A model generated the notes under the pieces. The model searched no databases. It worked only from the letters and a program-made list of their open reading frames with translations, and was not told the origin of the DNA. Of a DNA stretch of 64,000 bases, positions 36,247-56,400 are shown piece by piece. Source of the stretch: Vulcanimicrobiaceae bacterium (GTDB lineage: Bacteria; Vulcanimicrobiota; Vulcanimicrobiia; Vulcanimicrobiales; Vulcanimicrobiaceae). The number at the start of each line of letters is the position of its first letter. Position 1 is the stretch's first letter. Location: positions 4,310 through 68,309 of the forward strand of contig DATEHZ010000061.1 of the NCBI GenBank assembly GCA_035279385.1, given 5' to 3'. Position numbers and translations under genes: made by a program.

Positions 36247-36322
36247 TGGTGGAGGCAAGGAGACTCGAACTCCTGACCCTTACGCTGCCAGCGTAATGCT
36301 CTACCAACTGAGCTATGCCCCC
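36247..36322 (-). tRNA. tRNA-Ala(GGC), CCA encoded
   Basis: Reverse complement GGGGGCATAGCTCAGTTGGTAGAGC..TTACG-CTGGCAG-CGTAA.., G3:U70, ends ..TGCCTCCACCA. Confidence 0.9.
36250..36269 (-). repeat. Proximal copy of the 20-bp att-like repeat (inside tRNA-Ala)
   Basis: Identical to 33711-33730. Confidence 0.75.
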
Positions 36323-36362
36323 GAAGCGACCCGCAAAGATTCCCGGCGGGTCGTGAACATCC

Positions 36363-36435
36363 TGGAGATGAGGAGGCTCGAACTCCTGGCCCCCTGCTTG
36401 CAAAGCAGGTGCTCTACCAACTGAGCTACATCCCC
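36363..36435 (-). tRNA. tRNA-Ala(UGC), no encoded CCA
   Basis: Reverse complement GGGGATGTAGCTCAGTTGGTAGAGC.CCTGC-TTTGCAA-GCAGG.., G3:U70. Confidence 0.9.
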
Positions 36436-36573
36436 GCGTTTTATGGCGACCGGCGCACGTTCGCAAAGGGCGGCCGACTCACCTCCCCGGCCGGTAGTCC
36501 TAGTTTCAGATTCCTTTCATCACTTTGCGATACCCACTACGTAGATGGATACTGAAGATCGGAGGCGAGGACG

Positions 36574-37308
36574 ATGATCCACGCACTGCTCTTGGCCGCC
36601 ATCGGAGCAATGCCGCCGTGTTGGGATCTCTTCGATTCTGCACTTCGCCACAGCGCGAATGCCGCGCATCCGCCGTACGTAACCTACAGCGAGCGCATTG
36701 CGGTTTCGGAAGACGGCAACCCGGTCTTACGCAGCACCGCGCACGTCGATTATCGCGACGACGGTATCGCGCGCGTTTCGGACGAACGGTTCAACTTCGA
36801 GCCGTTCGTCACGCACCACGCCGAACCGGGTCCGCCCGAGCTTGGCCCGTACGGCAAGGGACGCGCCATGTGGTTGCCCGATTCGGACGCTTTGCCGATC
36901 ATCGCCCAAGTGCGCACGCTTGGCGCAATCACCTGCACGGTCGAAGATGAAGAACCGTACAAGGCGCACGACACCTATCATCTCGTCTTCACCGGCGCGT
37001 CCAATGAACGTCCGACGCTCAAAGACTTGTGGATCGATACGCGATCGCACGAGATTTGGAAACTGATCGTTACGGGTCCGGTTGCGTTTTGGGACGATAC
37101 GCAAGGGAACCGCGCGCTGGCGGAATTTCAAGTAGAACTGGGCTACAGCGGGCCGTATCTTGTGGTGAACCACGTCGTGTGGTCGTACGACCGCCGCGAA
37201 TTCTCGCAGCAGGTGCACTATTTCGGCGAGTACACCTTCACCGGATATGCGTTTCCCTCGGAACTGCCCGCCTCGTATTTCGGAGACGCCGCGGCCGCAC
37301 TGAAATAA
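36574..37308 (+). CDS. Hypothetical protein, paralog of 9787..10527
   Basis: SD GGAGG upstream, N-terminal signal-like segment, shared motifs with the other copy. Confidence 0.6.
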   Translation: MIHALLLAAIGAMPPCWDLFDSALRHSANAAHPPYVTYSERIAVSEDGNPVLRSTAHVDYRDDGIARVSDERFNFEPFVTHHAEPGPPELGPYGKGRAMWLPDSDALPIIAQVRTLGAITCTVEDEEPYKAHDTYHLVFTGASNERPTLKDLWIDTRSHEIWKLIVTGPVAFWDDTQGNRALAEFQVELGYSGPYLVVNHVVWSYDRREFSQQVHYFGEYTFTGYAFPSELPASYFGDAAAALK

Positions 37309-37338
37309 AAGAAGGACGCGAGGCGCGTCCTTCCGACA

Positions 37339-37415
37339 TGGTGGGCCATCCAAGGCTCGAACTTGGGACCTCATGCTTATCAAGCATGCGCTCTAACCAA
37401 CTGAGCTAATGGCCC
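37339..37415 (-). tRNA. tRNA-Ile(GAU), CCA encoded
   Basis: Reverse complement GGGCCATTAGCTCAGTTGGTTAGAGC.CATGC-TTGATAA-GCATG...GATGGCCCACCA. Confidence 0.9.
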
Positions 37416-37847: not shown

Positions 37848-39266
37848 ATGGCCGATAAATGTTGGCTTTACCTCGTTGTATCATCCGAAGCGCAGGAAGA
37901 CACGCTGGACGCGCAACGACGATGGGGGTTCGAGGAGGCCGCCCGTATCGGTGTGCGCGTTGATCCGGACGGCGTCTTTGAAGGAGTCGCCTCCGGCAAG
38001 CACGGCGCCCGAACGATCTTACTCGACCTGATCGCGAGGTTGCGCGCGCTCCCGAAGTCTGAGCGCCCGGCGCGTGTGCTGATGAATCGCCTGGACCGGA
38101 CGGGTCGCATGCCGCTAGACGCGATTTCTGCGCTGAACGACATTCGCAAACTCGGAGTCACAATCCGCGATCGGATTAACGGTGATTATACGTTTCAGCG
38201 CGTGATCGACCAAGTTGGGCCTATCTTCCAGCTGCTGCAGGCAGGGTTCGAAAACGAAGTTCGTTCCGATCGGTCGAGAGCCGGCCACAAACGCCGTCGC
38301 GACGAGGGAAAATTGATTCCGAGTAAACCGCCGTACGGCGTGAAGCGTGATGAACGCGGCAAAGCGATTCCGGATCCGAAATGCGCACGCGTTGTTCGAA
38401 AAGTCTTTGAGCGTTGGGCTGACGGCGATTCGCCTGCGGCGATCCTGCGATGGCTGCGCGAAAAGGCTCCGCCGCGCATCGGTCGCGGTGGCAAAGAGTA
38501 CCACATTCGGTGGAGCCTGTCCCATGTCTACAAAATGGTCGTGCTGGGCACTTACCGCGGCGTGGTAATCGACGAAGATCTCTGGCAGCGCGCTCAAAGT
38601 AGAAAGCGCAAGTACAGCCGTCCCGGGCCAGGCGGATACGTTTATCCATTTTCTGGCATTAAATGCACGTGCGGGCACACGCTGCGGGCCCGAACGAACG
38701 TATCGGCGTCACGCTATCGCCGAAGGGACGGCTCGGAAGTCATCTACACCCGCAGTCCAATCGTGTGGTACGTCTGCGGATCGCTGAAGCACGACGGCGT
38801 GAGGTATCTCTCTTTTCGTGAGGAGCGCATCGAAGAGCAGTGGCTAAAGATGCTGCGAATACTTTCATTGAAAAATGCTCCGTGGCCGACTTCGCAGCGT
38901 GCAACGAACCTGGGTCCGCGCATTGAAATGCTGACGCGCAGGCTCGATGTGCTCTTGGCACGACGTGATCGCGTCCATGCGGCTTTTGAAGATGGTACCT
39001 ACGATACGAAAACTATGCAGCGCCGACTCGCGGCCATCGACGAAGAGGAACGCAAACTGGAGGCCGACATCGCGGCGATACAGGCGCAGTATGAACGTGA
39101 ACGACAACGGCTCATTGATCGCGATCGCGCCGTGGCGTTGATAAAAAACGCTGCGAAGACGTACGCGAAGGCCACTCGCGAGGAACGTGCCCGGCTAAAC
39201 GCGGCTCTGTTCGCAGCGCTCGGACATCCCGTCATCACTGACGCATATCGCTTGACGCTGCCCTAA
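37848..39266 (+). CDS. Large serine recombinase (integrase)
   Basis: Resolvase catalytic domain (YLVVSSEAQ..LDRTGR), recombinase domain, Cys-rich zinc ribbon, C-terminal coiled coil. 472 aa. Confidence 0.85.
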   Translation: MADKCWLYLVVSSEAQEDTLDAQRRWGFEEAARIGVRVDPDGVFEGVASGKHGARTILLDLIARLRALPKSERPARVLMNRLDRTGRMPLDAISALNDIRKLGVTIRDRINGDYTFQRVIDQVGPIFQLLQAGFENEVRSDRSRAGHKRRRDEGKLIPSKPPYGVKRDERGKAIPDPKCARVVRKVFERWADGDSPAAILRWLREKAPPRIGRGGKEYHIRWSLSHVYKMVVLGTYRGVVIDEDLWQRAQSRKRKYSRPGPGGYVYPFSGIKCTCGHTLRARTNVSASRYRRRDGSEVIYTRSPIVWYVCGSLKHDGVRYLSFREERIEEQWLKMLRILSLKNAPWPTSQRATNLGPRIEMLTRRLDVLLARRDRVHAAFEDGTYDTKTMQRRLAAIDEEERKLEADIAAIQAQYERERQRLIDRDRAVALIKNAAKTYAKATREERARLNAALFAALGHPVITDAYRLTLP

Positions 39267-39275
39267 AGAGCAGAT

Positions 39276-39683
39276 TTAGAGGCTACGCTCCTCCGTCACG
39301 TTGATTGCGCGACCGTTGAGCGGTAAGTCCGATGCGGCGATGTACACGTTAAAGCGCTTGAAATACTGGAAGAATTCGCGGATTCCAATTTCAAAATGGA
39401 TGGCGCGGACCGGCGCCGGGTGGTGTGTGTTAAGAAAGTCTTTGGCTTGCTCATAGTTCGCGACCGGGATGACGTAGGCCGTGACTGACGCTGACGTTAC
39501 CGGTTCATCGAAGCGGCCGTTCTCGCCGTTGAACATACTGATTCCGATCAGAGACTCATCGTCTCGCAGGGCCCGCTTGTCGCGAAGATAGCGCTCGATC
39601 GATGGCAGCGGATGGTCGATGTTATCCGCTTCGACGGACCCTACCCACTCGCCGTACTGCACGCTGGCAACGAATTTCTTCAT
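39276..39683 (-). CDS. Hypothetical protein
   Basis: 135-aa ORF with lower GC, convergent with the recombinase. No family recognised. Confidence 0.5.
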   Translation of the reverse strand: MKKFVASVQYGEWVGSVEADNIDHPLPSIERYLRDKRALRDDESLIGISMFNGENGRFDEPVTSASVTAYVIPVANYEQAKDFLNTHHPAPVRAIHFEIGIREFFQYFKRFNVYIAASDLPLNGRAINVTEERSL

Positions 39684-40063: not shown

Positions 40064-40813
40064 ATGGGCAATTACCGTGAGGTCGAGGTCACCGAGACAC
40101 CAGCAGCGCGCGCCGCTCGCCTCTCGAAGACCGCTGAAAATGTTGCGCCCATCAATGAAGAGATCGGAGTTGATGCGCGCCTAATCCAAGAACGAGGCGG
40201 CGCCGACCCGGAGGAGCGTGCCGACGAATCCGCGACGCAAGCGATGCGCGGTCCGACGCGCGGTAAAGGGGGAAGATCTCGCACCGGTCGACATCCTAAG
40301 CAGAAAAGAGGAACATGGACCTGCCCGGCATGCCACGTTGAATACTGCACGCATCGTCCGGTTGATGCGGGCAGGCCCTCAATCTATGACGAGCCGATGG
40401 CTCCAAATCCGTTCAAACCACGCATATTTAAGACGGAGGCGGAGTACTTTCGCTCTTCGGTAGACGTGACACTACTGTTGCGCGACGTTGTCAACATCAT
40501 GCGCGCTTACTTCGAACGCAACGGGATCGATCCCATTAAAGAGTTGCGTGAACGCGCACTGGAGCATTACCGCGGCGGCGGTCCAGCAACGATTGACGTG
40601 GAAATGCGCGTGGAAATTGCCGAGCGATGGCCCAAAGCGCTGCTCGAATGGTGGCGCAGCACGCGCACCGCGATCGGCGTCAATGATGCTGTGTTGTGCC
40701 GGGAACTAGTCGCAGATTTTTCGTGGCTGGCGCTCACGGATCCCGCGGTTTCAGAGCGCGCGCTTCGCGCCCTGGAGGATGCGGCGGAGAAGTTGCGTCG
40801 GATTACTGCTTGA
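40064..40813 (+). CDS. Hypothetical protein with CxxC..C..H knuckle
   Basis: Internal ATG chosen (MGNYREVEV..). WTCPACHVEYCTH. No family recognised. Confidence 0.5.
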   Translation: MGNYREVEVTETPAARAARLSKTAENVAPINEEIGVDARLIQERGGADPEERADESATQAMRGPTRGKGGRSRTGRHPKQKRGTWTCPACHVEYCTHRPVDAGRPSIYDEPMAPNPFKPRIFKTEAEYFRSSVDVTLLLRDVVNIMRAYFERNGIDPIKELRERALEHYRGGGPATIDVEMRVEIAERWPKALLEWWRSTRTAIGVNDAVLCRELVADFSWLALTDPAVSERALRALEDAAEKLRRITA

Positions 40814-40847
40814 TTTTGCAATACCAATAATGCTATATTCGCAAGAC

Positions 40848-40877
40848 GACGCCGCTGACAAACGGCGTCTTATTTTT
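40848..40877 (+). terminator. Rho-independent terminator
   Basis: Stem GACGCCG/CGGCGTC followed by ttattttt. Confidence 0.6.
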
Positions 40878-40902
40878 GTTGCGCAGTTGGGGAAGTTAAA
40901 GG

Positions 40903-41097
40903 ATGACGGACAACAACCGAATTCGCGCGGTGCGCGAGCGCCGCGGCCTGACGCAAAGCCAACTCGGCGAACTTATTGGAAAGTCGCAGCCTGAGGTGTC
41001 AAGGCTCGAGATTCCGTCCGTCGCGCCGCGGCCAAAGACGCTCCGCAAAATTGCTGCAGCGCTGGACGTAAGCCCGCACGACCTACTCGTCGCCTAA
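40903..41097 (+). CDS. XRE/Cro-CI family HTH regulator
   Basis: IRAVRERRGLTQSQLGELIGKSQPEVSRLE, a canonical HTH_XRE. 64 aa. Confidence 0.8.
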   Translation: MTDNNRIRAVRERRGLTQSQLGELIGKSQPEVSRLEIPSVAPRPKTLRKIAAALDVSPHDLLVA

Positions 41098-41117
41098 CGC
41101 GTAGATAAAAAAAACGA

Positions 41118-41145
41118 GCGCCGGCGGCAACCGGCGCGATTTCTT
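41118..41145. terminator. Hairpin with flanking A and T tracts
   Basis: aaaaaaaa-cga-GCGCCGG-cggcaa-CCGGCGC-gatttctt. Confidence 0.5.
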
Positions 41146-41156
41146 GAGGCATTTCG

Positions 41157-41996
41157 ATGGTATCAGAAGACGACGCGTCACGCAACATCGCGGAGCGCGA
41201 CGAACGAAGGTGGTACGAAAAATCCCAAGCGGCGCTTCCCATTCTCGCCGGTTTACCAGCCTGCGCGTACGCTGTGTTTTATTGCATCCTCGGCCACGTT
41301 AAACCGGGCACCAACACGTGGTCAATGTCATACGCCGAGGTTGAGCGTGAGACGAAGATATCGCGAAGCAGCGTTGTTCGAGGCGTGCGTGAGCTCCGGC
41401 AGTCCATGCTTCTGCACACGGCTCAGCAGAAGCGTGAGCGCACCATTTTCACCTTGCATATTCCCGAACCGGTGTCAGGATTGACTGGTGTCGGGGTTGA
41501 GCATGATTACGGTGTCAGTGTTGAGCACGGTTCCGGTGTCAGGGTTGACGCATCACTGGTGTCAGCGCACGAAGAGCCTCCCAGCACACCCGATCCCAAT
41601 TCCCAACACGTCCCAGCAGCAGCCGCGCGCGTAAGTGAATCGGACCTAAAAGAAGCGTGGTCCAAGGAATCACCTTCGGCATATCCGGGCGTACGCACGT
41701 GGTCCGCATTCGTCGCGAAGAAAATTGAAAAAGGCGAAATGCCGGCGAAACGTTCAAATGACTCCCACGCAGTTTTATCGGGCACATGTGAGTGTTGCGG
41801 TAACCGAAAAACGGGGCGGCGCGTAGAGCCGTCGTTCGAGGATCTGATGCAGAGAGGCGACGTACTGCCCTGTGATCGGCCGTTCTTTTGCTTCGGCTGC
41901 TTAGAATTGTCGCAGCACGAACGGGACCGCCTGACACGCGAAAGGCGCGAGAAAGAGCAACAATGCGAATGGCAGACGGAGGACTATGCGGCATGA
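41157..41996 (+). CDS. Winged-helix DNA-binding, replication-initiator-like protein (uncertain)
   Basis: ISRSSVVRGVRELRQSMLL resembles the wHTH of phage/plasmid Rep/O-type proteins. Iteron-like repeats lie inside the gene. C-terminal Cys cluster. Confidence 0.45.
   Translation: MVSEDDASRNIAERDERRWYEKSQAALPILAGLPACAYAVFYCILGHVKPGTNTWSMSYAEVERETKISRSSVVRGVRELRQSMLLHTAQQKRERTIFTLHIPEPVSGLTGVGVEHDYGVSVEHGSGVRVDASLVSAHEEPPSTPDPNSQHVPAAAARVSESDLKEAWSKESPSAYPGVRTWSAFVAKKIEKGEMPAKRSNDSHAVLSGTCECCGNRKTGRRVEPSFEDLMQRGDVLPCDRPFFCFGCLELSQHERDRLTRERREKEQQCEWQTEDYAA
41471..41565 (+). repeat. Five iteron-like direct repeats GGTGTCRGKGTTGAS
   Basis: Copies start at 41471, 41487, 41511, 41535 and 41558 (the last is partial). 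Confidence 0.6.
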
Positions 41997-42181
41997 CAAT
42001 GGACGGACTGGCTGCAGCAGCACGTCGTCACGGCGCGGCGTTCAAATATCGCGAGGACGGCACTATCGTCACGATCGGGCTCGAGCGGCTCCCCGCCGAT
42101 TTGCGCCAGCAGGTCCTTCTTCGGATCGACGACGTGCGGCGCAGCGTCGCGCGGAGTCGAGAGGCACACGTAGCAAAATGA
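41993..42181 (+). CDS. Hypothetical small protein
   Basis: ATGA overlap with the upstream stop. 62 aa. Confidence 0.45.
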   Translation: MTMDGLAAAARRHGAAFKYREDGTIVTIGLERLPADLRQQVLLRIDDVRRSVARSREAHVAK

Positions 42182-42705
42182 GCACTCCAATAGCCCCAAA
42201 TGGCGGAAAAACGGCAGTTCGTTTTCGCGGCTCACGCGCAGAAAAGCCCGATGATACGGACGATCCCGAGGGTTCGTTTTTCCAAAACGACCGCGGGCAC
42301 CATAACGAGAAGTCCAGAACCCGTGCCGATGTGGCGCTCACGTCCGCTGAAGCGGTCTCAATGCTTGCGGGTGAAGTTGGCTTCGACGCGGAGATGGCCA
42401 AGCTGCAAGAGATGATGCGCCAGTCGACGCGCAAAATGCTCGATGAGGCGCGTTCAACGCGCGCGAAAACCGATGTGCTGACGTACTGTTTGGCGCTTCG
42501 TACCGCACTTGCGTTCGGCCAGGGCTTCTGTGCTCGCGAACTCGATGAGGACGAGACAGAGCGGATACATGAGCGATTAACGCTGAGGGCGGCGCGTGCC
42601 GTGCTGGCCAACGTCGAAAAGGCGGTTGAGCGCCAGATGTGGTTCACCGCGTACGATGCCTTGAACGCGTTTTTGATATCGGCGCTATCGTCTGGAGGGC
42701 GATGA
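42178..42705 (+). CDS. Hypothetical protein
   Basis: ATGA overlap with the upstream stop. 175 aa. Confidence 0.5.
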   Translation: MSTPIAPNGGKTAVRFRGSRAEKPDDTDDPEGSFFQNDRGHHNEKSRTRADVALTSAEAVSMLAGEVGFDAEMAKLQEMMRQSTRKMLDEARSTRAKTDVLTYCLALRTALAFGQGFCARELDEDETERIHERLTLRAARAVLANVEKAVERQMWFTAYDALNAFLISALSSGGR

Positions 42706-44814: not shown

Positions 44815-45465
44815 TTGAGTGCTGCGCCGCAAGCATTTCCGCTTCAGTGGCCTGCCGGCAAACCGCGAACGCCGGCGCAGAAGCGCGAGCGCGCAAAATT
44901 CGGCAAGAAGGGCCGCGGCTGGACATCGGATCCCATCACCGGCGGCAATCGGTACGAGGGCGCAAAGTCACTGACGGTCGCCGATGCGGTCGCGCGCGTG
45001 CAGGGAGAACTCAGGCGCTTAGGCGCAACGCACCCCGTCATTTCGACGAACATCGAACTGCGGCGTGATGGTCTGCCGTACTCGAAGCAGCCGCGACTCG
45101 ACGACGATCCTGGCGCCGCGGTGTACTTTCAGCTCAAGGGCAAGCCGATCGTGCTCGCCTGCGACCACTACGACCGCGTCGCGGACAACGCCGCTGCGAT
45201 CGCTGCGCACGTCGACGCGATGCGTGCGATTGAACGGCACGGCGTCGGCTCGCTTGAGCAAATGTTCGCCGGGTTCGCTGCGCTACCGCCGATATCGCCA
45301 GATGATTGGCGCGAGCCGCTCGGGCATCCGTCCACGCTGGACGAGGCAGAGCGTAATTATCGAGAGCGCATGAAGTACGCGCATCCAGACGTGGGCGGTA
45401 ACGAAGCCGTCGCCGCGAGACTTAACGCAGCAATCGCGAAAGCGCGCGAAGAGCTCGCTGCATAA
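44815..45465 (+). CDS. J-domain (DnaJ-like) phage-type protein
   Basis: TTG start 6 nt after GGAGGTG. C-terminal J domain ..YRERMKYAHPDVGG.. (HPD motif). Confidence 0.7.
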   Translation: MSAAPQAFPLQWPAGKPRTPAQKRERAKFGKKGRGWTSDPITGGNRYEGAKSLTVADAVARVQGELRRLGATHPVISTNIELRRDGLPYSKQPRLDDDPGAAVYFQLKGKPIVLACDHYDRVADNAAAIAAHVDAMRAIERHGVGSLEQMFAGFAALPPISPDDWREPLGHPSTLDEAERNYRERMKYAHPDVGGNEAVAARLNAAIAKAREELAA

Positions 45466-45903: not shown

Positions 45904-46122
45904 ATGATAAAAATCGTTTTTGCGGCAGCCTCCCTGCTTTCTGTCCTTATCACCGGGGCCGACCGCTGCGCGCCGGGCTCTTCCGCTAAGCCAGGCATAG
46001 TTTGCGTGGTCGGCGCTCTAAAAAAAGGCGGCGATATTCGAAATGTGTACGCTTCCGATGGTGCGCAACTGATCGTAGAGCAAACTGATGCTGCGTGCAT
46101 TCGGGATACGCACGCCAAATGA
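45904..46122 (+). CDS. Small secreted protein
   Basis: Internal ATG after GAAGGA. Signal-like MIKIVFAAASLLSVLITGA. Confidence 0.45.
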   Translation: MIKIVFAAASLLSVLITGADRCAPGSSAKPGIVCVVGALKKGGDIRNVYASDGAQLIVEQTDAACIRDTHAK

Positions 46123-46955
46123 GAAATGCAATTTTACGCGTCGCACTGGCAATTGCTGCTTTCGCGCTGCTTGGTGCATTCGCGAGCAATCAGCTGATGT
46201 CTAGAAACGACGTTTATGCTCAGATCGGCACCGCGTTCTCGTGGGCCGGCACGGCGCAAGCGTCATGGAACGGCGATCACACCATGGTGAACTGCTCCGA
46301 CTTCTTCACGTACATTAAGTCGGACGGTTCCAGTTGCACGACGTTGTACGGAACGAACGGCGCTCATCAGATCATGAATTGGTCGCAGATGCAGCAGCAC
46401 GCGGTCAACTCTACACCGGTTTCGCATACCCCGATCTTGTCGAACAATACCTTTGCCGGGGCCGTCTTCAGCCCGTGGACCGCCGACGGGTCGGCAACCT
46501 GTTCCGCGAACTTCGCCGCCTCGACGACCGATCAGGAAGGCACCGACGGCGGCAGTGCGACGGGCAATTCAAGCAACGGAACGTGCACCATTGGGATGAG
46601 CCAGACGTTCAACGTTACCGCTGCTCCGACGAGCCAATCGCTTTCGTTTTACTATGAGACTCCCAATGTATCCGCCGGCGACGGAATCAACTGCACGGCG
46701 GGAACGGGATCGGCAACAATCACGATCAAGCTCAACGGTACGACGATCTCTACCATTACCAACCCCACCTACGATTCGTCCTGGCACCCGGTGAGCACGC
46801 CCATCAGCGCCATGGTATCTGGAAGCAACACGCTGGATATTACGGTATCGCTCACGGCCGCTTCCGGAACGACCGGAAGCCCAGCGTGCACTACACATCA
46901 ATACGCCCAACAACACGTGTACATCGACAACGTTCAATTAACCGCGACGTACTAG
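46119..46955 (+). CDS. Secreted Ser/Thr/Asn-rich protein
   Basis: ATGA overlap. Signal peptide MRNAILRVALAIAAFALLGAFA. About 11 N-x-S/T sequons. Confidence 0.55.
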   Translation: MRNAILRVALAIAAFALLGAFASNQLMSRNDVYAQIGTAFSWAGTAQASWNGDHTMVNCSDFFTYIKSDGSSCTTLYGTNGAHQIMNWSQMQQHAVNSTPVSHTPILSNNTFAGAVFSPWTADGSATCSANFAASTTDQEGTDGGSATGNSSNGTCTIGMSQTFNVTAAPTSQSLSFYYETPNVSAGDGINCTAGTGSATITIKLNGTTISTITNPTYDSSWHPVSTPISAMVSGSNTLDITVSLTAASGTTGSPACTTHQYAQQHVYIDNVQLTATY

Positions 46956-47046
46956 CCTCGTGCGGCGCAATTTATACCTTTCGAATTTGCGAAAAATGGA
47001 AAAGGGACCGACTGCATCGATCCCCTTCGTCAGGTCACGGACGTGG

Positions 47047-47973
47047 CTAGTATGTAAATGCGCCGGCGGACGCGAGCATGTAACCGGCAAAGATGTCCTG
47101 GTTCGGATCGCTTGCCCCGAAGATCGCCCACTTGCCGATACGTCCATCATGCGTTTTGAAGCAGTACGTGTTCGGGCTCGATCCGTTGAACGTCGAGATA
47201 CTCACGCTGGTCGCAGCGCTGGGAATGGCTCCGCAGGCGCTCGTGGTCGTGACATTCATCAGCGCGTTGTAGCCGGCCGCGACCGCGCCATACGGAAAGA
47301 CGACTTGCGAAGGGCTGGTTGACGCATCGAGATAGACATCGGTATCCGCCTGCGTGTCGGCCTGCTCGCTCACGCCGTTCGCGTCGAACATCGCGCCCGT
47401 CAGGAAGTGGAACAAGTCCGTCGTGTCGAGCGACGATCGCAGCCCCATCCCGCGGTAGGTCAGTAGCGAGAGTTTTTGGGTGGTACCCAGTGACGTCATC
47501 GTGATCGTCGTTTGACCCGAGGTCGTCGGCAAGCCGACGACCTCGGCATTGAATACCTGCTGACAACTGCAGTTATTCAGCGGCCACGTCGGATACGTGG
47601 TCGGAATCGGCGCGGGGTTGCCGGTTTGACTCCATGTGACCGAGGGCAACGGGCTCGGGATCGCCGATCCGTCCGTCGTGTCGAGCACTGCCTGAGCCTC
47701 AACGCCGATCGTGTTCGGCGCGCCGCTGATATATGCGTCCGGAACGGCAAGTTGCTGTGTCGGGATGATTTGCCCGACGACGGTCGCCATCGGCGACGTC
47801 ATTACAGAGCGAAACAGGCTTTGCGGCGTTGAGCCGGAGGATCCGAACGTCGCGAGCACCTTGGCGGCTTTCGGTTGCATTGTCGGCAGTACGCTGGGCG
47901 AACCGCTGCCTCCGCCGCATCCGGCAAGCGCACAGGCGGAAACGGCGACGACGATGAGCGTGAAACGAATCAT
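47047..47973 (-). CDS. Lipoprotein, hypothetical
   Basis: Lipobox ALAGC followed by a Gly/Ser linker. 308 aa, Ser/Thr rich. Confidence 0.6.
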   Translation of the reverse strand: MIRFTLIVVAVSACALAGCGGGSGSPSVLPTMQPKAAKVLATFGSSGSTPQSLFRSVMTSPMATVVGQIIPTQQLAVPDAYISGAPNTIGVEAQAVLDTTDGSAIPSPLPSVTWSQTGNPAPIPTTYPTWPLNNCSCQQVFNAEVVGLPTTSGQTTITMTSLGTTQKLSLLTYRGMGLRSSLDTTDLFHFLTGAMFDANGVSEQADTQADTDVYLDASTSPSQVVFPYGAVAAGYNALMNVTTTSACGAIPSAATSVSISTFNGSSPNTYCFKTHDGRIGKWAIFGASDPNQDIFAGYMLASAGAFTY

Positions 47974-48069
47974 GTTGTGATTTATACCTCCGCGCCAATC
48001 TTACCAAAGGCGCTCGGCGGCCGCGTTGCCGATAACAATTCCACGCACAAAATTGCGCCGCACGCGCTA

Positions 48070-48090
48070 CCGATAATCAAACCTTATCGG
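48070..48090. promoter_or_regulatory. Perfect palindrome CCGATAA-N7-TTATCGG (operator-like)
   Basis: Intergenic, 44 nt upstream of ORF 48134. An extra half-site CCGATAA lies at 48029. Confidence 0.5.
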
Positions 48091-48133
48091 AACCAGCGAT
48101 GCGCAAAGTCAAGATAGCCGGGGGTTACGGAAG

Positions 48134-48550
48134 ATGACTGCTCACGTCGCGCGAGACAGCGCGCTGGTGGATGAGTCGATGCAAATGCAGACCGCCAGCA
48201 TTCATGCGGCAGAGCTGGCGAAATCGGCCTTTGAGGCCGCCAAGTATAGGGCGCTTGCGTTGACGTGGGCGCACACTATAGACCTGCTGGACACGTATCT
48301 TGCACCAGCGAACAGTCTTGAAGAGCTCCGCCGCGACATGCCGCTCCTCATCTGGGCGATACACACGTTGTGTAGCGCGATGCTGGACCAGACGCCCTCG
48401 CCTGAGCCGGTTGGAACGCATCCCGCGTTTGCCCGCATATCGAGGCGTGACGCGACGCGGATCCTGCGCGAGATGCGCGACGGCATCGTCGATGAGCGCT
48501 ATGAAAAACTGCGGCGCCGCTGCGCCAATCTACTTCCGGAGGTCGCGTAA
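48134..48550 (+). CDS. Hypothetical protein abutting the tape-measure-like gene
   Basis: 138 aa. Its TAA is immediately followed by the ATG of the next gene. Confidence 0.5.
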   Translation: MTAHVARDSALVDESMQMQTASIHAAELAKSAFEAAKYRALALTWAHTIDLLDTYLAPANSLEELRRDMPLLIWAIHTLCSAMLDQTPSPEPVGTHPAFARISRRDATRILREMRDGIVDERYEKLRRRCANLLPEVA

Positions 48551-50935
48551 ATGGCTGGTACCGATCCATATAGACTCTGGGTTGAATTTCGGGTCAAGGA
48601 TTACACGTCCGAGAACCTGGCCAACATCAGCAAATCCGTCCGCGCGACGAAAGAGCAAACCGCGGCCCTCAAAAAAGAGCTCGCCGGTATCCGCGCGCAG
48701 TCAATGATCCCGACGTCGGCTCTTCAAGCACGGCAGCAGATGCTGCGGATTGCTCGAGAGGAAGCCGTCGTCGGCGAGCGGCTCGCAACGACCTCCACCC
48801 GTAAGGAGCGGCAAGCGCTCTCGACGCGTCTGCAAGCTCTGCGGATCGCGCAGCGAGACATGTCGGTCACGCGTCAGACGCTGGCGTTCAAGGAACAGCA
48901 AGGGGCGGCGGAAGAGAAAGTCGCTGCCGCGAACGCGCAAGTCCTCGCCGTGGCGAGGGACCTCTCCGAAATCCGCGCGCGCGGACTCGGTCAGGCGACG
49001 GATCTCACCGAACTGCGCCGCGAGCAGCTGGAACTCGCCCGAGAAGAAGCGGCGATCCGCGAGCAACTCGCGACGACGGTCGATCTCGCCGAACGCGCAG
49101 CGCTGCAAAGCCGATTGGAAGCCGTGGGTCTGGCGGAGCGGGAGCTGCAGATCCGCCGGCAGACGCTGGGCGTCGACAAGGCCGATCGCAAAGCCCGTCT
49201 TGAAGCCTTAGCGCAGGTCGGTCACGGCGTGAATCACGTCGGCACCAATCTGATGTTCACCGGCGGCGGTATCTTCGCAGGTCTGGCCTATGCCACGCAA
49301 AAGGCGATGGTGTTCGACCAAACGGCGCTGGAAACGGACATGGCGCTCGGCGGGTACACCCGTTCCGCGGCGCAGCGGCAGTCCGACATTCGCGCGCTTC
49401 AAAAAGCGGCGATGATCGGCTCCGAGGCGACGGGATTCTTCAGCGCCCAGGACATTCTCGAAGGCTTGAAGATGGCCGCGAGCTCCGGTTCGCGTCCGCT
49501 CGTCGAGAAGATGGGCATGGGGGTCTTCACGCAGATCGCTCCCTCGCTCAGCCAGTTCATGGACGTGCTCGGCCGGCTCAAGGGCGAGTCCGCCGGGCAA
49601 GCCGCGAAGGAAGCGATTCAGACCGCGCACATGTTCGGCGCCTACAAGCCGGCCGATATCGCGCGCGTGCTGAACGCGCAGGCCGCGCTCACGCTGTTGA
49701 TGCCGGACAAAATGTCCACCGCGGTCAATACGCTTGCGTACGCCGCTCCGGCGGGCGTGCAGCTCGCTGGGATCCCGCAAGAAGCCATCCTCGCGCTCTT
49801 GGCGACGGCAGACCAATCCGGTCTGGGTCACGGCCGCGCCGGCGCGCGCCTGAAAAACTACATCGAAGCGGTCGCTCTGCACCAATCAGCGCCACGGGAG
49901 CGCGCGAAGGCCGCGCTGGGTATCCACAACGCCGTCAATCCGGACGGCAGCGTCGACCTGATGCGTTCGTTCGAGATCCTCATGGCGGATCGCAAACGCA
50001 TGGGTGCACAGGCATTCCGCGATGCGGCCACTACTGCATTTGGTCAGCAAGGCGTCATCGTCGCCGCGATGTTCGGCGACGAGAGCAAGCAGAGCATGTT
50101 CAACGCCAATCGCGCGGTTATCGAACAGGCGATCCAGCACGGCGATCTGAGCACGATCCAAAACCTGATGAAGGGCACGGCGCTTGGAAAAGAAGCGCAG
50201 GCCATGGCTCGTCTGAACAACGACCTCATCGAATTCGGCCGCTCTGGGATTCCGATCGCGACGAAGTTCTTCGACACGATCAACCCGAAGCTCAAACAGT
50301 TCGGTGACTGGATGCAAGCGCATCCGAAAGCCACGGATCGCCTCTTCAACGACCTGGTTGACGTTGGTGGCGGAATGCTTGCGTTCGGAGCGGCCTTCAA
50401 GGTATTCGGAACCGCACTGGCCGTACCGCTGGGCATCTTCAAGACGCTGCAGGCGCTGAAGATGGCGAAGGATCTGGGCACGATCGCGAAGGCGGTAAAG
50501 ACGCTGGGGCTCGTGGAATCCGCAGCGGCGCCCGAGGCGGAAGCCCTGGCCGGCATCGGCACCATCAGCGCGGGAACGGTCGCGGCGGTGACCGGTGCTG
50601 TCGCTGCCGTCGCCGGTCTGCTCTACGGCGTCGTCTACGATGAGAAGCACCCGACGCCATCATTCACGGGTCTTGGCCCCGCTGCGGACGCGACGGCGGC
50701 AAACTACGGTTTGCTCGGAACGCAAACGGCATACACTCCTCTCGGTCCCGGCAAGACGACAGCCGATCTTTCCGCGCTCAAAGCGAAAGTCGAATTCGAA
50801 CTGCCAAAAAATATGCCGCGCGGCACGCGCGTGACGGTTCACGCGCACCTGCAAAGCATCATGGGCACGAATCCGCGGTCAGTCGCGCTACCGAAGCCGG
50901 TGACGGTCGGCGGGATGTCCTTCGGGACGCCTTAA
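48551..50935 (+). CDS. Phage tail tape-measure-like protein (TP901-type core)
   Basis: N-terminal repeated coiled coil. Core ..AAMIGSEATGFFSAQDILEGLKMAASSG.. and ..GLGHGRAGARLKNY... Gly/Ala-rich hydrophobic C-terminal part. 794 aa. Confidence 0.7.
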   Translation: MAGTDPYRLWVEFRVKDYTSENLANISKSVRATKEQTAALKKELAGIRAQSMIPTSALQARQQMLRIAREEAVVGERLATTSTRKERQALSTRLQALRIAQRDMSVTRQTLAFKEQQGAAEEKVAAANAQVLAVARDLSEIRARGLGQATDLTELRREQLELAREEAAIREQLATTVDLAERAALQSRLEAVGLAERELQIRRQTLGVDKADRKARLEALAQVGHGVNHVGTNLMFTGGGIFAGLAYATQKAMVFDQTALETDMALGGYTRSAAQRQSDIRALQKAAMIGSEATGFFSAQDILEGLKMAASSGSRPLVEKMGMGVFTQIAPSLSQFMDVLGRLKGESAGQAAKEAIQTAHMFGAYKPADIARVLNAQAALTLLMPDKMSTAVNTLAYAAPAGVQLAGIPQEAILALLATADQSGLGHGRAGARLKNYIEAVALHQSAPRERAKAALGIHNAVNPDGSVDLMRSFEILMADRKRMGAQAFRDAATTAFGQQGVIVAAMFGDESKQSMFNANRAVIEQAIQHGDLSTIQNLMKGTALGKEAQAMARLNNDLIEFGRSGIPIATKFFDTINPKLKQFGDWMQAHPKATDRLFNDLVDVGGGMLAFGAAFKVFGTALAVPLGIFKTLQALKMAKDLGTIAKAVKTLGLVESAAAPEAEALAGIGTISAGTVAAVTGAVAAVAGLLYGVVYDEKHPTPSFTGLGPAADATAANYGLLGTQTAYTPLGPGKTTADLSALKAKVEFELPKNMPRGTRVTVHAHLQSIMGTNPRSVALPKPVTVGGMSFGTP

Positions 50936-51375
50936 TGCTGCCACGGCAACGCGCCGCACTTCGAAAGAAGAACCAGCACAATAACTAGCAGCGCAATCCA
51001 CAATAGCGCATAGATGACCTGCAAGGCGGCCTGCACGATGAGTGCGAGGTCGAGCAGCAATCCGCCGAGGCCGGCGAACAGCATGCGCCACGCTTGTCGC
51101 TTAGATAGTCTCGCCTGAGGCGGCGTCGTAATCACAGGCGCCCTGCGCGGTTCGAAAGCTGTGGGTTCCGGGTCGTGGATGCGAGCGCAAAACGGCGCGC
51201 TTTCATCCTCGGCTGCGCGGTTGGAGCGTGCGGCAAATTCGGACTCGATGTCCCAGGTATTGGGATCGGTATCACGGTCGGTTTCGGCTTGGTCCGCATC
51301 CTCGTCGTCTTCGTTATCGACGAACGGGGCGGCCCAGCCGCTGACCCCGCGCTTGCGGTTCATAGCTGAAAGCAT
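50932..51375 (-). CDS. Acidic protein with a C-terminal TM anchor, hypothetical
   Basis: 147 aa. D/E-rich N-terminus and a hydrophobic C-terminus. Confidence 0.4.
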   Translation of the reverse strand: MLSAMNRKRGVSGWAAPFVDNEDDEDADQAETDRDTDPNTWDIESEFAARSNRAAEDESAPFCARIHDPEPTAFEPRRAPVITTPPQARLSKRQAWRMLFAGLGGLLLDLALIVQAALQVIYALLWIALLVIVLVLLSKCGALPWQH

Positions 51376-51401
51376 AGTTCAGCCGAGTAGATGCCACACT
51401 G

Positions 51402-51422
51402 CCGATAACCGCAAATTATCGA
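51402..51422. promoter_or_regulatory. Palindrome CCGATAA-N7-TTATCGA (operator-like)
   Basis: Lies in the divergent intergenic region between 51375 (-) and 51627 (+). Confidence 0.45.
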
Positions 51423-51626
51423 GCGCCTCAATTCGCGGGTGCGGCAAAGGTTAATATTCTGTGATTTTCACCACGACCGACGGCGACGCAGTCATCAGCG
51501 GAGGAGGACGTACGGCTTTGGGGCGGAAGCGCGCTTCATGTCCGCTGCGCATAGAGGTGGGGCGCTTCCCCTTTTTTCCGAAACCCGGGCTTCGTCGTGC
51601 TCGTTATCGGGTAAGGAGATAGCAGA

Positions 51627-51887
51627 GTGACCATTATGTACGCACCGAGCCGGCGGGCCTTCAACCGTGACCGTCGTCCGGACAGCCCGCAGAAGATCGT
51701 CAACGATGCGGTGCGCAGCCTCCACGTGCGCTGCCTTGGCGTTGATGGAACACTTCTCATTTTTCAGCGCACAAACCGAGCTTCGCACGATCTCAACGCT
51801 CTAACGCAACAGATCGCCCAGCGGCTTCTTCAGAACGAAGATCTGCGTGAAGCGCTGAGCGGGATTACCGGCATAAGATTGCTGTAG
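51627..51887 (+). CDS. Hypothetical protein
   Basis: GTG start 9 nt after AAGGAG. 86 aa. Confidence 0.45.
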   Translation: MTIMYAPSRRAFNRDRRPDSPQKIVNDAVRSLHVRCLGVDGTLLIFQRTNRASHDLNALTQQIAQRLLQNEDLREALSGITGIRLL

Positions 51888-51912
51888 GCCGGCGCTGCGC
51901 GCCGTCGGGTGG

Positions 51913-52695
51913 GTGTGGTTCCTCGCGCTGGGGATTCCGGCCGTCGCTATCGGATTTGTGTCATGGCTATATGTCCACCAATGGTTGGCGCTTGCACATG
52001 GCTCAAGCGTAATACAGTGCGCGTTCGGCAATCCAGTTTGTAGCGTTGCGGTAGCGACATGGGCCTTGGTGCTGTTCACGATTTTTGCGTTTGCCGCTGC
52101 GGCGTCTGCGGCGATTTTCGCGAAGTGGGCGTTCAATAACGAGATCGAGCCGAGGCTAGGCGAGGATGCCTGCACGAATCGCCGTTGCACGCGACGCGAT
52201 CGCGTCTGGTACCTTTCTTCGGACATCGAATTTCTGCCTAAACGTCCGCTGGGCAGCACAGAGAAGCAGTATCGAAAAGTGCATCACGCTTTTACGAACC
52301 TAGGGCGCAACGCCCTGGGGAACGTCGTGGTCAAGGTCTGTTTTCTGGATAAGGACGGCTTTCCGTCCCCCGAATTTGACATGCCACTTGGAAACCTCGG
52401 TGTAGCGGACCTGCACCGCGAACGGCACGTCGAAATTCGTATCCACGAGGATCTTTACGACGATGGCGACGTCTTCATTCGATTTAATTCGGCGTCAGCC
52501 GACGGCAAAAAGATCAAGGCGTTCTTGAAGGTCGATCCCGAAGTGCCAACGGCGCAGAATCTGTTCATCCTGCCAAACTCCCAGCTATCCATGGGAGAGC
52601 TAATGCGCGAAGTGCGCCGAACCGAATTGAAACCTGGTCGTTCGAATCGCCGACGCGAAGCCGAGGCCGGACACGTGCAGGAAGACGACGAGTGA
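51913..52695 (+). CDS. Membrane protein with a cytoplasmic C-terminal domain, hypothetical
   Basis: 2-3 N-terminal TMs followed by a soluble domain of about 170 aa. Confidence 0.5.
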   Translation: MWFLALGIPAVAIGFVSWLYVHQWLALAHGSSVIQCAFGNPVCSVAVATWALVLFTIFAFAAAASAAIFAKWAFNNEIEPRLGEDACTNRRCTRRDRVWYLSSDIEFLPKRPLGSTEKQYRKVHHAFTNLGRNALGNVVVKVCFLDKDGFPSPEFDMPLGNLGVADLHRERHVEIRIHEDLYDDGDVFIRFNSASADGKKIKAFLKVDPEVPTAQNLFILPNSQLSMGELMREVRRTELKPGRSNRRREAEAGHVQEDDE

Positions 52696-52718
52696 TGCTC
52701 TTCCGCGATTAGCTGGCG

Positions 52719-52932
52719 CTATCGCGTCTCAAGTCGTCCGGTCACTCTGACTTTATCCCAGCGAAACGTCAAACACTGGACTTCACCGGGCGGGAACGCA
52801 CCGTCTCGGATCGTTACGGTGCCCGCTGCCATTGCCGACGAATCGCGCCGTCGCCGCCGCGTGGTGGATCTAACGCACTGTAGTCAATACTTGCGCCACG
52901 CGGCGAGATCCGCCGATCGCAAAGGCGGTCAT
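52719..52932 (-). pseudogene. Frameshifted paralog of the 68-aa gene at 54353..54559
   Basis: MTAFAIGGSRRV.. stops after 20 codons. Another frame continues ..GTVTIRDGAFPPGEVQCLTFRWDKVRV, matching ..TVTIETVCFPPGEFQRLTFRCDDVTL. Confidence 0.45.
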
Positions 52933-52948
52933 GCTCCTAGAAATTCCA

Positions 52949-53368
52949 TCATTCGCCGGACGGTTGAACATCTGGATCGAGGCGCAGCCAATCACCCTGT
53001 AATAAAATTGCTGCCGGACCGTGGTTTTCGTTCAACGATCCAAGCATGGCCGCCACATGCATATCGTGTATGTCGCGCAGCTGTGGCGCGTACTTCTTCG
53101 GACCACTAAATGACATTTCGAACACGGCCCATTCGTCAGTGCCGGGAAGGGGCCACACCGCGGTTCGTTCATGGAACTTGCGCAAATGCGCCAGTGGAAC
53201 GCTTTCGGTGTCGAGATAAACTTGTTTGTCCCTGCTCCGCCGCAATCGCTGCGCGAGATCGGCCGATTCCGGGTGAAGGCGGAAGCGAATTGCAGACCGG
53301 TACGTGATGCGGTCGTTTGCAAGCGTGATTTGCGGGTCAAGACTTGGTTTACTGTTCATCTCATTCAC
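52949..53368 (-). CDS. Hypothetical protein
   Basis: 139-aa ORF. No family recognised. Confidence 0.45.
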   Translation of the reverse strand: MNEMNSKPSLDPQITLANDRITYRSAIRFRLHPESADLAQRLRRSRDKQVYLDTESVPLAHLRKFHERTAVWPLPGTDEWAVFEMSFSGPKKYAPQLRDIHDMHVAAMLGSLNENHGPAAILLQGDWLRLDPDVQPSGE

Positions 53369-53405
53369 CGCGCCTTTGCCGTGCGCGCCATGCGTCGGCG
53401 CGTCA

Positions 53406-53780
53406 TTAGACGTCCGGCTTTTCTACGAATAGGTGACCGTTCGCGTCCACGTTGATCCGCGCGTAAACACGCTTTGATGCTGCCGCGATAACCTGGGGAA
53501 GACCGCGGTGCGCGTCCAGGCGCTGTAGCTCAAAGTCGCCATCGTCCGCACCAAGGCGGTGGATGGCCAGATCGCTCGCGAAAACCTGCACCGCCTCTGT
53601 CCCGAATCCCTCATCTGCGCGCGTGTTTAATCCCCGAACGGGCTCAACGTCAAATTTCGTTCCGCGGACGCTCCGCTCGACGTACGCCTTAAACCGTTGC
53701 TCACCGCGCTCCATTTGCGGGCCGCCCGACGTGCTTCCCATAGTGAGGCGTACGGCGCCACAGCCTTCAACGTCCTGCAA
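53406..53780 (-). CDS. Hypothetical protein (start uncertain)
   Basis: 124-aa ORF. No family recognised. Confidence 0.4.
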   Translation of the reverse strand: MQDVEGCGAVRLTMGSTSGGPQMERGEQRFKAYVERSVRGTKFDVEPVRGLNTRADEGFGTEAVQVFASDLAIHRLGADDGDFELQRLDAHRGLPQVIAAASKRVYARINVDANGHLFVEKPDV

Positions 53781-53802
53781 AGCTGGCGATAAGCGGCTGT
53801 TA

Positions 53803-54219
53803 TCAGTAGGTAACGTACGCGTCCCCCGGCGGTAAATCGAGGCAGTCTAGTAGAAGGCTCGCGAGCGTTTCGAGCGCTGCTCGAAGATCCTTTGCGTTGT
53901 TCTGGAGCCAACACCATTTTTGGTTTTTCGTCGCGCGTTCTATCTGGGTCGCGTATCGCATGATTTGTGTCGCCCCGACGCAGCGGGCACCCTCGCGAAG
54001 CTTATCGCACAGATAGAGCACCGAGGTCCAATCGCGATCCGCGATCGCGCCCGCTATGCGCGCCGAGGTTTGCGTTGCATCGGGCAACCAGATTTTGCGA
54101 ACGAATTCGAACGCTGCGTCGACATCGCAATCGAAGAATTCGGCGACTCGTGCCAGGTCATCGGGATTGAGGCACATCGCCTCCAAATCCGCATCGCGCA
54201 TCACGTCCACCCTTTCCAT
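53803..54219 (-). CDS. Four-helix, HPt-like protein lacking the phospho-accepting His (speculative)
   Basis: WTSVLYLCDKLREGARCVGATQIMRYATQIE resembles the HPt pattern ..H.LKGSA..LGA..L...LE with His replaced. Confidence 0.35.
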   Translation of the reverse strand: MERVDVMRDADLEAMCLNPDDLARVAEFFDCDVDAAFEFVRKIWLPDATQTSARIAGAIADRDWTSVLYLCDKLREGARCVGATQIMRYATQIERATKNQKWCWLQNNAKDLRAALETLASLLLDCLDLPPGDAYVTY

Positions 54220-54352
54220 GACGACGCGCCGCTGGCTAAAGGCCGACGCCGCGCATATCGGTGTGCCCCCTTGCTTTATAGGACTATCGGCCCATAGTTG
54301 GGGACGAGAAACGTCGCAGTTCTTTGTAAAGAGCGCGCAAAGCGAATGCGGG

Positions 54353-54559
54353 TTACGCCCGGGATTTAGTGAGCGTTACATCGTCGCACCGGAACGTCAG
54401 ACGCTGAAATTCGCCCGGCGGGAAGCACACCGTCTCTATGGTCACGGTATTGCGTGTCATCGCTACAACGGTGCCGTCACCGCCGCGTTGCGGGTCCATC
54501 TGGCTATACTCGCGCTTGCGCCACGAGACACGATCGCCAATTTTAAATTCGGTCATCAT
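54353..54559 (-). CDS. Small (68 aa) hypothetical protein, intact copy of the duplicated gene
   Basis: MMTEFKIGDRVSWRK...; paralogous remnant at 52719..52932. Confidence 0.5.
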   Translation of the reverse strand: MMTEFKIGDRVSWRKREYSQMDPQRGGDGTVVAMTRNTVTIETVCFPPGEFQRLTFRCDDVTLTKSRA

Positions 54560-54797
54560 GTTGCGCCTATAACACGGCGGCCCGCGTGCGGTCAAACGCC
54601 GGCGGGCTAATCGCATAAAAAACAGGAAGGCCCGCTGAAAGCGAGCCTCTCTGTCGTCGCGTACGCGGTTCCCCGCGTACCGGGTGTGGGCGACGATTGA
54701 GCGCGATTCGGCCAACATCAAGATTGACCTTCGCTAGTCCCGAAGGTGCGCTACATGTGAATCTCTTCGGTTGTGTTCCGCGCCGAATTGCTCGCCA

Positions 54798-55142
54798 TTA
54801 CTTTCCCTCCGCATTGCCGCGGCGCCGCTCACTATTTTGCTGTGCCTGGTCAAGCGCGTGCAGCACGGCCATTGCGTCGTCGCTGTCGTTAAGCCAGATC
54901 GTTTCAGTGGGGCCACCGAAGGGCGGTTTGCACGATGGCGCCGACTGAACCGTGATGCCTAAGCGTCGGCACCGACGTTCTTTCGCCGCAGTAACGCACT
55001 TATCGCACGTCGCGCGGTCAGATTCCGTTTCCGAAGTACCGCACATGATGCAAAGGCCGGCTGCGCGCAGGCGCTGTAGGCGCCGGCGCCGAGTGGCGCG
55101 AGCCCTGGCCTTTGCGTCGCTGTGTATTTTACGTCGCGGCAT
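54798..55142 (-). CDS. Basic zinc-ribbon protein, hypothetical
   Basis: Arg-rich N-terminus and GLCIMCG...CDKC. Confidence 0.5.
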   Translation of the reverse strand: MPRRKIHSDAKARARATRRRRLQRLRAAGLCIMCGTSETESDRATCDKCVTAAKERRCRRLGITVQSAPSCKPPFGGPTETIWLNDSDDAMAVLHALDQAQQNSERRRGNAEGK

Positions 55143-55155
55143 ATGACTGAAGCGG

Positions 55156-56399: not shown

Positions 56400-56400
56400 G

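Follow-up and report, generated by a model that had tools for sequence, protein, structure and literature searches.

Does a mobile element of a soil bacterium carry its replication origin inside the gene for its own initiator protein? The question is raised by an array of five short direct repeats in the middle of an open reading frame (ORF) of 279 codons, at 41157..41996 in a 64,000-nucleotide stretch of DNA from a Vulcanimicrobiaceae bacterium (contig DATEHZ010000061.1; this whole stretch is referred to as the window). An original prediction, made from the sequence alone, had compared the repeats to the iterons of phage lambda (λ), which lie within the initiator gene O, and had proposed that the element is an autonomous replicon. 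The analysis presented here suggests that the array is a λ-O-style replication origin of an integrated phage-like element, a reading to which we give a probability of roughly 0.6. The repeats themselves, their placement in the gene, and the signature of selection at the DNA level are borne out by our analysis; the resemblance to λ is partial, and the proposal of an autonomous replicon finds no backing in the surrounding genes.

The repeat array and selection on its DNA

The five GGTGTC(A/G)G-type direct repeats were confirmed both by inspection of the sequence and by repeat searches, at the positions and within the spacing range of 16-24 nt originally predicted (Table 1). Their start-to-start spacing is 16, 24, 24, and 23 nt, and Tandem Repeats Finder recovers the array independently (24-nt period, 2.8 copies, score 90). 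The degenerate 15-mer GGTGTC(A/G)G(G/T)GTTGA(C/G) has four full matches in the window, all of them in the array, compared with 0.51 expected over 64 kb on both strands, and each of the four occurrences of the 8-mer GGTGTCAG on either strand of the window likewise falls within the array. A single further match to GGTGTC[AG]G is found at 13377, and weaker copies with up to three mismatches are not in excess outside the array, promoters included (24 matches versus 32 expected). Copies 1 and 4 contain an internal dyad, GTCA-N4-TGAC. We also considered the array as a folded single-stranded DNA structure and rejected this, its stability not exceeding that of shuffled sequences (z = +1.2); an Rfam search over 36-47 kb returned tRNAs and no other known RNA.

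The array occupies codons 105-137 and encodes the linker PVSGLTGVGVEHDYGVSVEHGSGVRVDASLVS, as had been proposed, and its copies are read in two different frames: copies 1 and 5 as (P/L)-V-S, and copies 2-4 as G-V-x-V-E/D. In-frame conservation of the domain downstream, in the closest homologue, P0002, and in a protein encoded on contig L009, confirms the frame assigned to the array. When the codons of residues 100-140 were resampled synonymously, following local codon usage, none of 20000 trials (0/20000) produced five GGTGTC[AG]G copies, and five copies of any 6-mer arose in 2/20000.

P0002 (50% identity), the sole close homologue, is encoded on contig L001 of a Candidatus Baltobacteraceae metagenome-assembled genome (MAG). 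Here, GGTGACAG-type copies start at 9454, 9488, 9512, and 9535, with a degenerate copy at 9472, and they occupy orthologous codons, again in two frames. Position 5 of the core is T throughout the window copies and A throughout the L001 copies, and this concerted T-to-A change converts G-V to G-D and V-S to V-T in the peptide. In a codon alignment of the two genes, the repeat linker has only 29% amino acid identity, with 58% nucleotide and 61% third-position identity, compared with 63%, 63%, and 40%, respectively, for the N-terminal DNA-binding domain and 55%, 61%, and 45% for the middle domain. This is the opposite of a peptide repeat that is conserved while its synonymous positions vary freely, and supports the DNA-level selection suggested in the original prediction. 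Seven contigs carry an identical gene; as the DNA across it is 100% identical in all of them, they offer no informative population variation.

Taken together, the two reading frames, the outcome of the resampling, the retention of the core in L001 alongside a changed peptide, and the occurrence of non-coding arrays in other relatives (described below) argue for selection on the array as DNA. The array is thus very probably a functional DNA element.

The encoded protein and its family

An AlphaFold2 (AF2) model of the 279-aa protein, built on an alignment of five sequences, confirms the winged-helix-like segment that had been noted in the N-terminal half of the ORF, upstream of the repeats. Residues ~20-100 form a domain with the order helix-helix-strand-helix-helix-strand-strand and a predicted local distance difference test (pLDDT) score of 86-95, which we refer to as the winged helix-turn-helix (wHTH) domain. 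Residues 106-157, encoded by the repeats and by a C-rich tract that follows them, are disordered (pLDDT 26-37). Past this linker, two helices are placed at residues 161-191, followed by a C-terminal helix. The middle domain that includes the two helices is a candidate protein-interaction module. A Foldseek search against the PDB returns generic wHTH regulators of the MarR, ArsR, and CodY type with a probability of 1.0, and a search against BFVD returns, again with a probability of 1.0, phage and viral helix-turn-helix (HTH) proteins, the named ones including a replisome organizer, Replication initiator A, the N-terminal part of λ GpO, and DnaD.

Profile searches with the family point in the same direction. 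In PHROG, families of replication initiation (O-like) and DnaD-like proteins head the lists for P0002, P0003, and P0006 (best E 7e-6), and the families matched by the wHTH domains comprise phrog_678, 270, 391, 428, 345, 8102, and 186 (E 7e-6 to 1e-2). Pfam HTH_36 (PF13730) scores 27.0 bits in P0003 (cut-off 25), 21.2 in P0002, 17.8 in P0006, and 12.2 in the window protein, and precomputed database annotation places PF13730 on P0003 and P0008. All these PHROG and HTH_36 matches span the 50-90 residues of the wHTH domain alone, the remainder of the proteins being without a match. The likeness to the O-like, replisome-organizer, and DnaD-like proteins of PHROG that carry an HTH_36-type wHTH is limited to the N-terminal domain, and the window protein itself stays below threshold. 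Judged by these profile matches and the model, the wHTH domain resembles those of phage initiators. Binding of the array by this adjacent domain, and hence by the gene's own product, is likely.

The homologue searches, which comprised word-indexed protein searches, an exhaustive HMMER search against 1.84 billion representatives, and scans of contigs from genomes, viruses, and metagenomes, recovered P0002, P0003 (without a contig on record), P0005, P0006, and P0008 and no others; P0004 and P0007 were discarded as low-complexity artefacts. The relatives were recovered from metagenomes of soil and forest, with the Baltobacteraceae (Vulcanimicrobiota/Eremiobacterota) MAG mentioned above as the single named host. 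Searches of the protein with tblastn yielded zero matches in 50,697 phage genomes and zero in 72,556 plasmids.

In two of the relatives, the array lies outside the gene. P0006 (on contig L008) and P0008 (on L011) are ~33-35% identical to the window protein over the wHTH domain, and their genes stop directly after it. On L008, an array of RGSGGACAR units follows 3' of the gene at 1515, 1561, 1595, 1617, and 1638, together with inverted copies, in a stretch with stops in three frames. On L011, four 23-nt units, TAGGGTRGACAGCATGTTGTCCR, are located past the stop codon at 768, 826, 852, and 876. The units of both arrays are dyad-symmetric (GGACA-N4-6-TGTCC), and the iteron cores of the four loci are related: GGTGTCAG in the window, GGTGACAG on L001, GGTGGACAG on L011, and GCGGACAG on L008. 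The cysteine content of the proteins varies as well, with P0006 and P0008 carrying a CxxC..CxxC motif (a putative zinc ribbon) at the N terminus instead of the C terminus, and P0002 lacking the Cys-rich ribbon.

A further arrangement is seen on L009, where a protein of 207 aa combines a different wHTH domain with a middle domain in common with the window protein (LKxAWxxESxxxYPGVRNWEAF). The linker of this protein is encoded by TGT[AC]A[AG] repeats at 437, 462, 497, 519, and 542, which are unique in the contig, are read in two frames, and are followed by an AT-rich stretch. L009 represents a module swap in which the DNA-binding domain and its repeats are exchanged as a unit. On the same contig (13-779), the gene for the 207-aa protein overlaps at its start with a preceding HTH_17 (Xis/AlpA-like) gene. 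Across these loci, the position of the array after the wHTH domain is kept, whether the array is coding or non-coding.

The C-rich tract and the case for an origin

Directly 3' of the array, the top strand of the window becomes C-rich, with four TCCCA copies within five CCC runs (Table 1). This tract begins 21 nt past the start of the last iteron, and its TCCCA copies occupy all three codon positions. Clusters of at least three TCCCA within 40 nt occur nowhere else in the window, and neither strand of the 64 kb contains another 4 x C3/G3 motif (0.69 expected). As a sequence pattern, the tract is of the i-motif type when the top strand is read and a canonical G-quadruplex (G4) motif when the bottom strand is read. 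The window, L001, and L008 have the junction GCCTCCCA in common, again at 21 nt. On L008 (1661-1695) and L011 (903-935), a non-coding C-tract is located 3' of the array with a hairpin next to it, and it is the sole G4/i-motif-type motif in the scanned stretches of L008 (700-2112) and L011. The C-tract is a second conserved DNA element that is independent of reading frame and coding status, and it suggests itself as a candidate unwinding or accessory element.

Origins with iterons inside the initiator gene are textbook knowledge, and for a direct comparison the annotated iterons of λ gene O (NC_001416) were analyzed with the same tools as a control. Gene O (38686-39585) has 299 codons, and its iterons at 39034, 39054, 39078, and 39101 are spaced by 20, 24, and 23 nt and read in three frames. 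The layout of the window gene is closely similar: an N-terminal DNA-binding domain is followed by a linker that is encoded by an array with an internal dyad, at codons 105-137 of 279 here and 117-145 of 299 in λ, with mixed frames in both. A second, strand-asymmetric element directly follows the last iteron, and the initiator gene comes after a Cro-type regulator. The number of copies is also in line with the O/ori systems of lambdoid and Stx phages, with four to six direct repeats in the initiator's own gene. The O proteins of lambdoid phages are modular, and L009 resembles them in swapping the DNA-binding domain and iterons while retaining the downstream domain. According to a published description, the lambdoid ori is made up of iterons and an AT-rich tract, both located midway in gene O, and two extra iterons add 13 residues to the O protein (PMC7466680).

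There are, however, clear differences from λ. The element after the iterons is AT-rich in λ but C-rich (TCCCA and CCC runs) in the window, whereas the L009 relative is AT-rich at this position; a P-like loader gene was not recognized downstream; and the array lies outside the gene in some members of the family (L008 and L011). Of the proposed λ-style origin, the selection on DNA, the mid-gene placement, the matches to initiator families in PHROG, and the λ geometry stand, while homology to λ O does not. Because an AT-rich tract is missing and no homology to O is seen in the sequence, the array would be a variant of an oriλ-type origin and not the same.

Iteron plasmids offer a second point of comparison. 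Their origins are intergenic and AT-rich and usually have DnaA boxes. The window locus shares direct repeats, a winged-helix initiator, and adjacent repeated motifs with these systems (F RepE, RK2 TrfA, pPS10 RepA, and R6K pi), but its array is neither intergenic nor AT-rich and is without DnaA boxes, and in place of the two winged-helix domains of Rep the AF2 model has a single wHTH domain, after which come the disordered linker and the two helices of the middle domain. In the plasmid systems, the DNA unwinding element (DUE) carries repeated motifs of its own, which the Rep proteins bind on one strand (PMC10602881; see also PMC4980987). By analogy, the TCCCA repeats on one strand could act like plasmid DUE motifs. 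G4-type motifs are also reported beside the initiator sites of the herpesvirus lytic origins (oriLyt) of HCMV and KSHV (human cytomegalovirus and the Kaposi's sarcoma-associated herpesvirus; PMC11350156, PMC10714766). These are, however, eukaryotic viruses with unrelated initiators, and the G4/i-motif assignment at our locus is a pattern prediction and is absent in L001. The more specific idea that this origin family uses a strand-asymmetric C-tract in place of an AT-rich element, where it would either form non-B DNA that promotes opening or offer the initiator a repeated single-strand motif to hold, is put forward tentatively, and we consider it doubtful.

If the array is an origin, the following sequence of events can be envisaged. 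Induction or excision of the element would lead to transcription from the promoter on the side of the Xre-type gene and to production of the 279-aa protein. The iterons would serve as double-stranded sites for the wHTH domain encoded just upstream in the same gene, which would bind the four to five phased sites as dimers and build an O-some-like complex, as suggested by the spacing of 23-24 bp and the dyad GTCA-N4-TGAC. The C-rich TCCCA tract, which together with the iterons would make up the origin in a λ-like layout, might then be distorted or opened, with one strand held as by plasmid Rep or stabilized as non-B DNA. Finally, the conserved middle part or the C-terminal part of the protein could recruit the host helicase machinery. 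Both the role of the C-tract and this recruitment of host helicase are inferred.

Several observations weigh against an origin. An AT-rich unwinding region and DnaA boxes, which the original prediction had proposed to look for, are absent beside the array: no 30-mer exceeds 63% AT within 41100-42300, the GC content over 41400-41699 is 0.57-0.585, and no DnaA box TTATCCACA with up to one mismatch is found in 40800-42400. The nearest AT-rich 30-mer coincides with a promoter-like site ~650 nt upstream. Homology to λ O is undetectable (hhalign of the family profile, probability 0.2%), Pfam scans of the window protein and its family give no match to Phage_rep_O, and the single PHROG match of the window protein (P0001) is phrog_678, "replication initiation O-like", at E = 0.02. 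No helicase, loader, primase, or polymerase was recognized among the neighboring genes in Pfam, PHROG, NCBIfam, and PDB searches, and all seven contigs with the identical gene (7/7) show the integrated state, with no sign of an episome. L001 (9556-9570) is without the full C-tract, having two CCC runs only, and the comparative statistics derive from few independent events, with DNA available for five family loci. With neither AT-rich nor DnaA elements, no detectable λ O homology, no helicase, and integrated contigs throughout, origin function and an autonomous replicon remain matters of inference.

The foremost alternative is a transcription-factor role for the wHTH protein, with the repeats serving as its operators in autoregulation by roadblock or in the control of the downstream genes. 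The generic MarR/ArsR/CodY-type fold and the failure to recognize replication enzymes nearby are in keeping with this, as are L008 and L011, where arrays of dyad units lie between the wHTH gene and the next gene and are followed by hairpins; P0006 and P0008, each a zinc ribbon plus wHTH with an intergenic array, also fit this picture of a regulator and its operators. The array of the window, L001, and L009 is, however, positioned mid-gene between two protein domains and far from promoter-like sites, and no further copy of the motif is found near the promoter or elsewhere in the window. The best family matches in PHROG noted above are to replication initiators and not to regulators, and four to five sites in the same orientation at ~23-24 bp with a conserved second element are origin-like, as in λ. 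We therefore regard a purely regulatory role as unlikely. Operator and origin functions are compatible with each other.

Alternatively, the array could be a packaging (pac) site or a partition centromere for a dedicated DNA-binding protein. Some phages have their pac site within the small-terminase gene, and on L001 the initiator-like gene is directly followed, at 9817-12083, by two ORFs of 148 and 46 aa and then a large terminase gene (phrog_38, 8e-91), so that replication and packaging genes stand back to back in that element. Similarly, the wHTH centromere-binding protein pNOB8 AspA is among the fold matches. Yet the protein has no match to terminase-small-subunit or ParB/ParR families, no ParA-type ATPase lies beside the gene at any locus, and no terminase gene was recognized among the tested ORFs of the window element, where the gene sits in the early region beside the Xre/Cro-like gene. 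The window element and L001 have the initiator-like gene alone in common, which indicates that the linkage to terminase is not conserved. Both variants are, in our view, quite improbable.

That the repeats are a functionless by-product of recent slippage or duplication in a low-complexity peptide linker is the least probable alternative by far, for while the linker is predicted to be disordered and copies 2-4 encode G-V-x-V-E/D every 24 nt (8 codons), the other frame is used by copies 1 and 5, L001 keeps the DNA core as the peptide changes non-conservatively, synonymous resampling does not reproduce the array, the related arrays of L008 and L011 are non-coding, and the downstream TCCCA motif is also independent of frame and coding status.

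The surrounding element and its significance

The initiator-like gene is part of an early-region layout in which an integrase gene is followed by an Xre/Cro-like HTH gene and then by the initiator-like gene (Table 1). Judged by its match to consensus, the promoter-like site upstream of the Xre-type gene would drive both this gene and the initiator-like gene. In λ, the terminator tR1 is located between cro and the replication genes, and the position of the hairpin at 41118-41137 is reminiscent of it.

Table 1. Coordinates of the array, the initiator-like gene, and neighboring features in the window
Feature	Position	Strand	Remarks
Iteron copy 1	41471-41485	+	GGTGTCAGGATTGAC; dyad GTCA-N4-TGAC; codes (P)VSGLT; core at codon position 3
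Iteron copy 2	41487-41501	+	GGTGTCGGGGTTGAG; codes GVGVE; core at codon position 1
Iteron copy 3	41511-41525	+	GGTGTCAGTGTTGAG; codes GVSVE; orthologous to L001 GGTGACAGATCCGAC
Iteron copy 4	41535-41549	+	GGTGTCAGGGTTGAC; dyad GTCA-N4-TGAC; codes GVRVD; orthologous to L001 AGTGACAGGGTTGGC
Iteron copy 5, truncated, core only	41558-41565	+	GGTGTCAG; codes (L)VSA; frame of copy 1; orthologous to L001 GGTGACCG
TCCCA x4 within five CCC runs	41579..41615	+	TCCCA at 41579, 41594, 41601, 41611; C-rich top strand
Initiator-like gene, 279 aa	41157..41996	+	N-terminal wHTH, disordered linker, helical middle domain, Cys-rich C-terminus
wHTH DNA-binding domain, ~aa 14-104	41196..41468	+	pLDDT 86-95; Foldseek probability 1.0; 63% aa identity to P0002
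Middle domain, aa 161-200	41637..41756	+	LKEAWSKESPSAYPGVRTWSAFVAKKIEKGEMP; common to P0002 and L009 protein
Cys-rich segment, putative zinc ribbon	41787..41900	+	C211, C213, C214, C239, C245, C248; low-confidence model region
Large serine recombinase (integrase)	37848..39266	+	Pfam Resolvase + Recombinase; phrog_95 integrase 8e-34; left end of element
tRNA-Ile(gat)	37339-37415	-	adjoins serine-recombinase element
Promoter-like site TTGATT-18-TATATT with TG	40810..40839	+	consensus match only; most AT-rich 30-mer of the region
Xre/Cro-type HTH regulator	40903..41097	+	directly upstream of initiator-like gene; Pfam HTH_3 2.6e-14; PHROG transcriptional regulators
GC-rich hairpin with A-run and T-run flanks	41118..41137		terminator-like on both strands; consensus match; between Xre-type and initiator-like genes

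On the left side, the element adjoins a cluster of tRNA-Ala(ggc), tRNA-Ala(tgc), and tRNA-Ile(gat) genes on the minus strand (36247-37415) that is without rRNA genes and contains a 244-aa ORF on the plus strand (36574-37308). Downstream of the initiator-like gene, ORFs of 62, 175, 300, 55, 63, 187, and 216 aa have no informative match in Pfam, PHROG, NCBIfam, or the PDB, and a single-sequence AF2 model of the 300-aa ORF reaches a pLDDT of 41. The 216-aa protein (44815-45465, plus strand) belongs to a family of unknown function (phrog_9210, E 1e-49), and its C terminus resembles a J-domain core (…YRERMKYAHPDVGGNEAVAARLNAAIAKAREEL), with Pfam DnaJ giving no match. A second block of mobile-element genes extends over 46000-56500 and includes a tape-measure-like ORF of 794 aa (48551-50935, phrog_28 1e-15) and a tyrosine integrase gene (55419-56441, minus strand); an SLT transglycosylase gene (57813-58451, minus strand) is located just past it. 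Among the ORFs tested here, no terminase, portal, or capsid gene was recognized. The island region is bounded by the tyrosine integrase gene and by the host genes fabH/fabD/fabG from 60627. A search for attachment (att) repeats between the tRNA-Ile/recombinase side and 44-60.7 kb turned up nothing above 13 nt in either direct or inverted orientation. Given that the neighboring genes differ among the window, L001, and L009, the gene and its array behave as a portable module of mobile elements.

The new points are a family that lacks annotation and comes from an uncultured phylum, an array that is coding in some members but not in others, and a conserved C-tract. If the array is an origin as proposed, a replication module, comprising initiator and origin, has been identified for mobile elements in soil bacteria of the Vulcanimicrobiota/Eremiobacterota type, an uncultured lineage whose elements carry replication genes that the libraries searched here do not recognize. 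The λ solution of placing the origin in the linker of its own initiator gene would then recur without detectable homology to λ O. The family also provides a natural comparison of dual coding, the array being coding in some relatives and non-coding in others, with an iteron core that changes in concert across all copies of a genome. Furthermore, the locus would present a bacterial mobile-element origin with a G4/i-motif-type element and no AT-rich tract, and a C-tract in place of the AT-rich element could inform how origins open in GC-rich genomes. For genetic tools in this group of bacteria, the fragment at ~40.8-42.0 kb offers a candidate minimal replicon.

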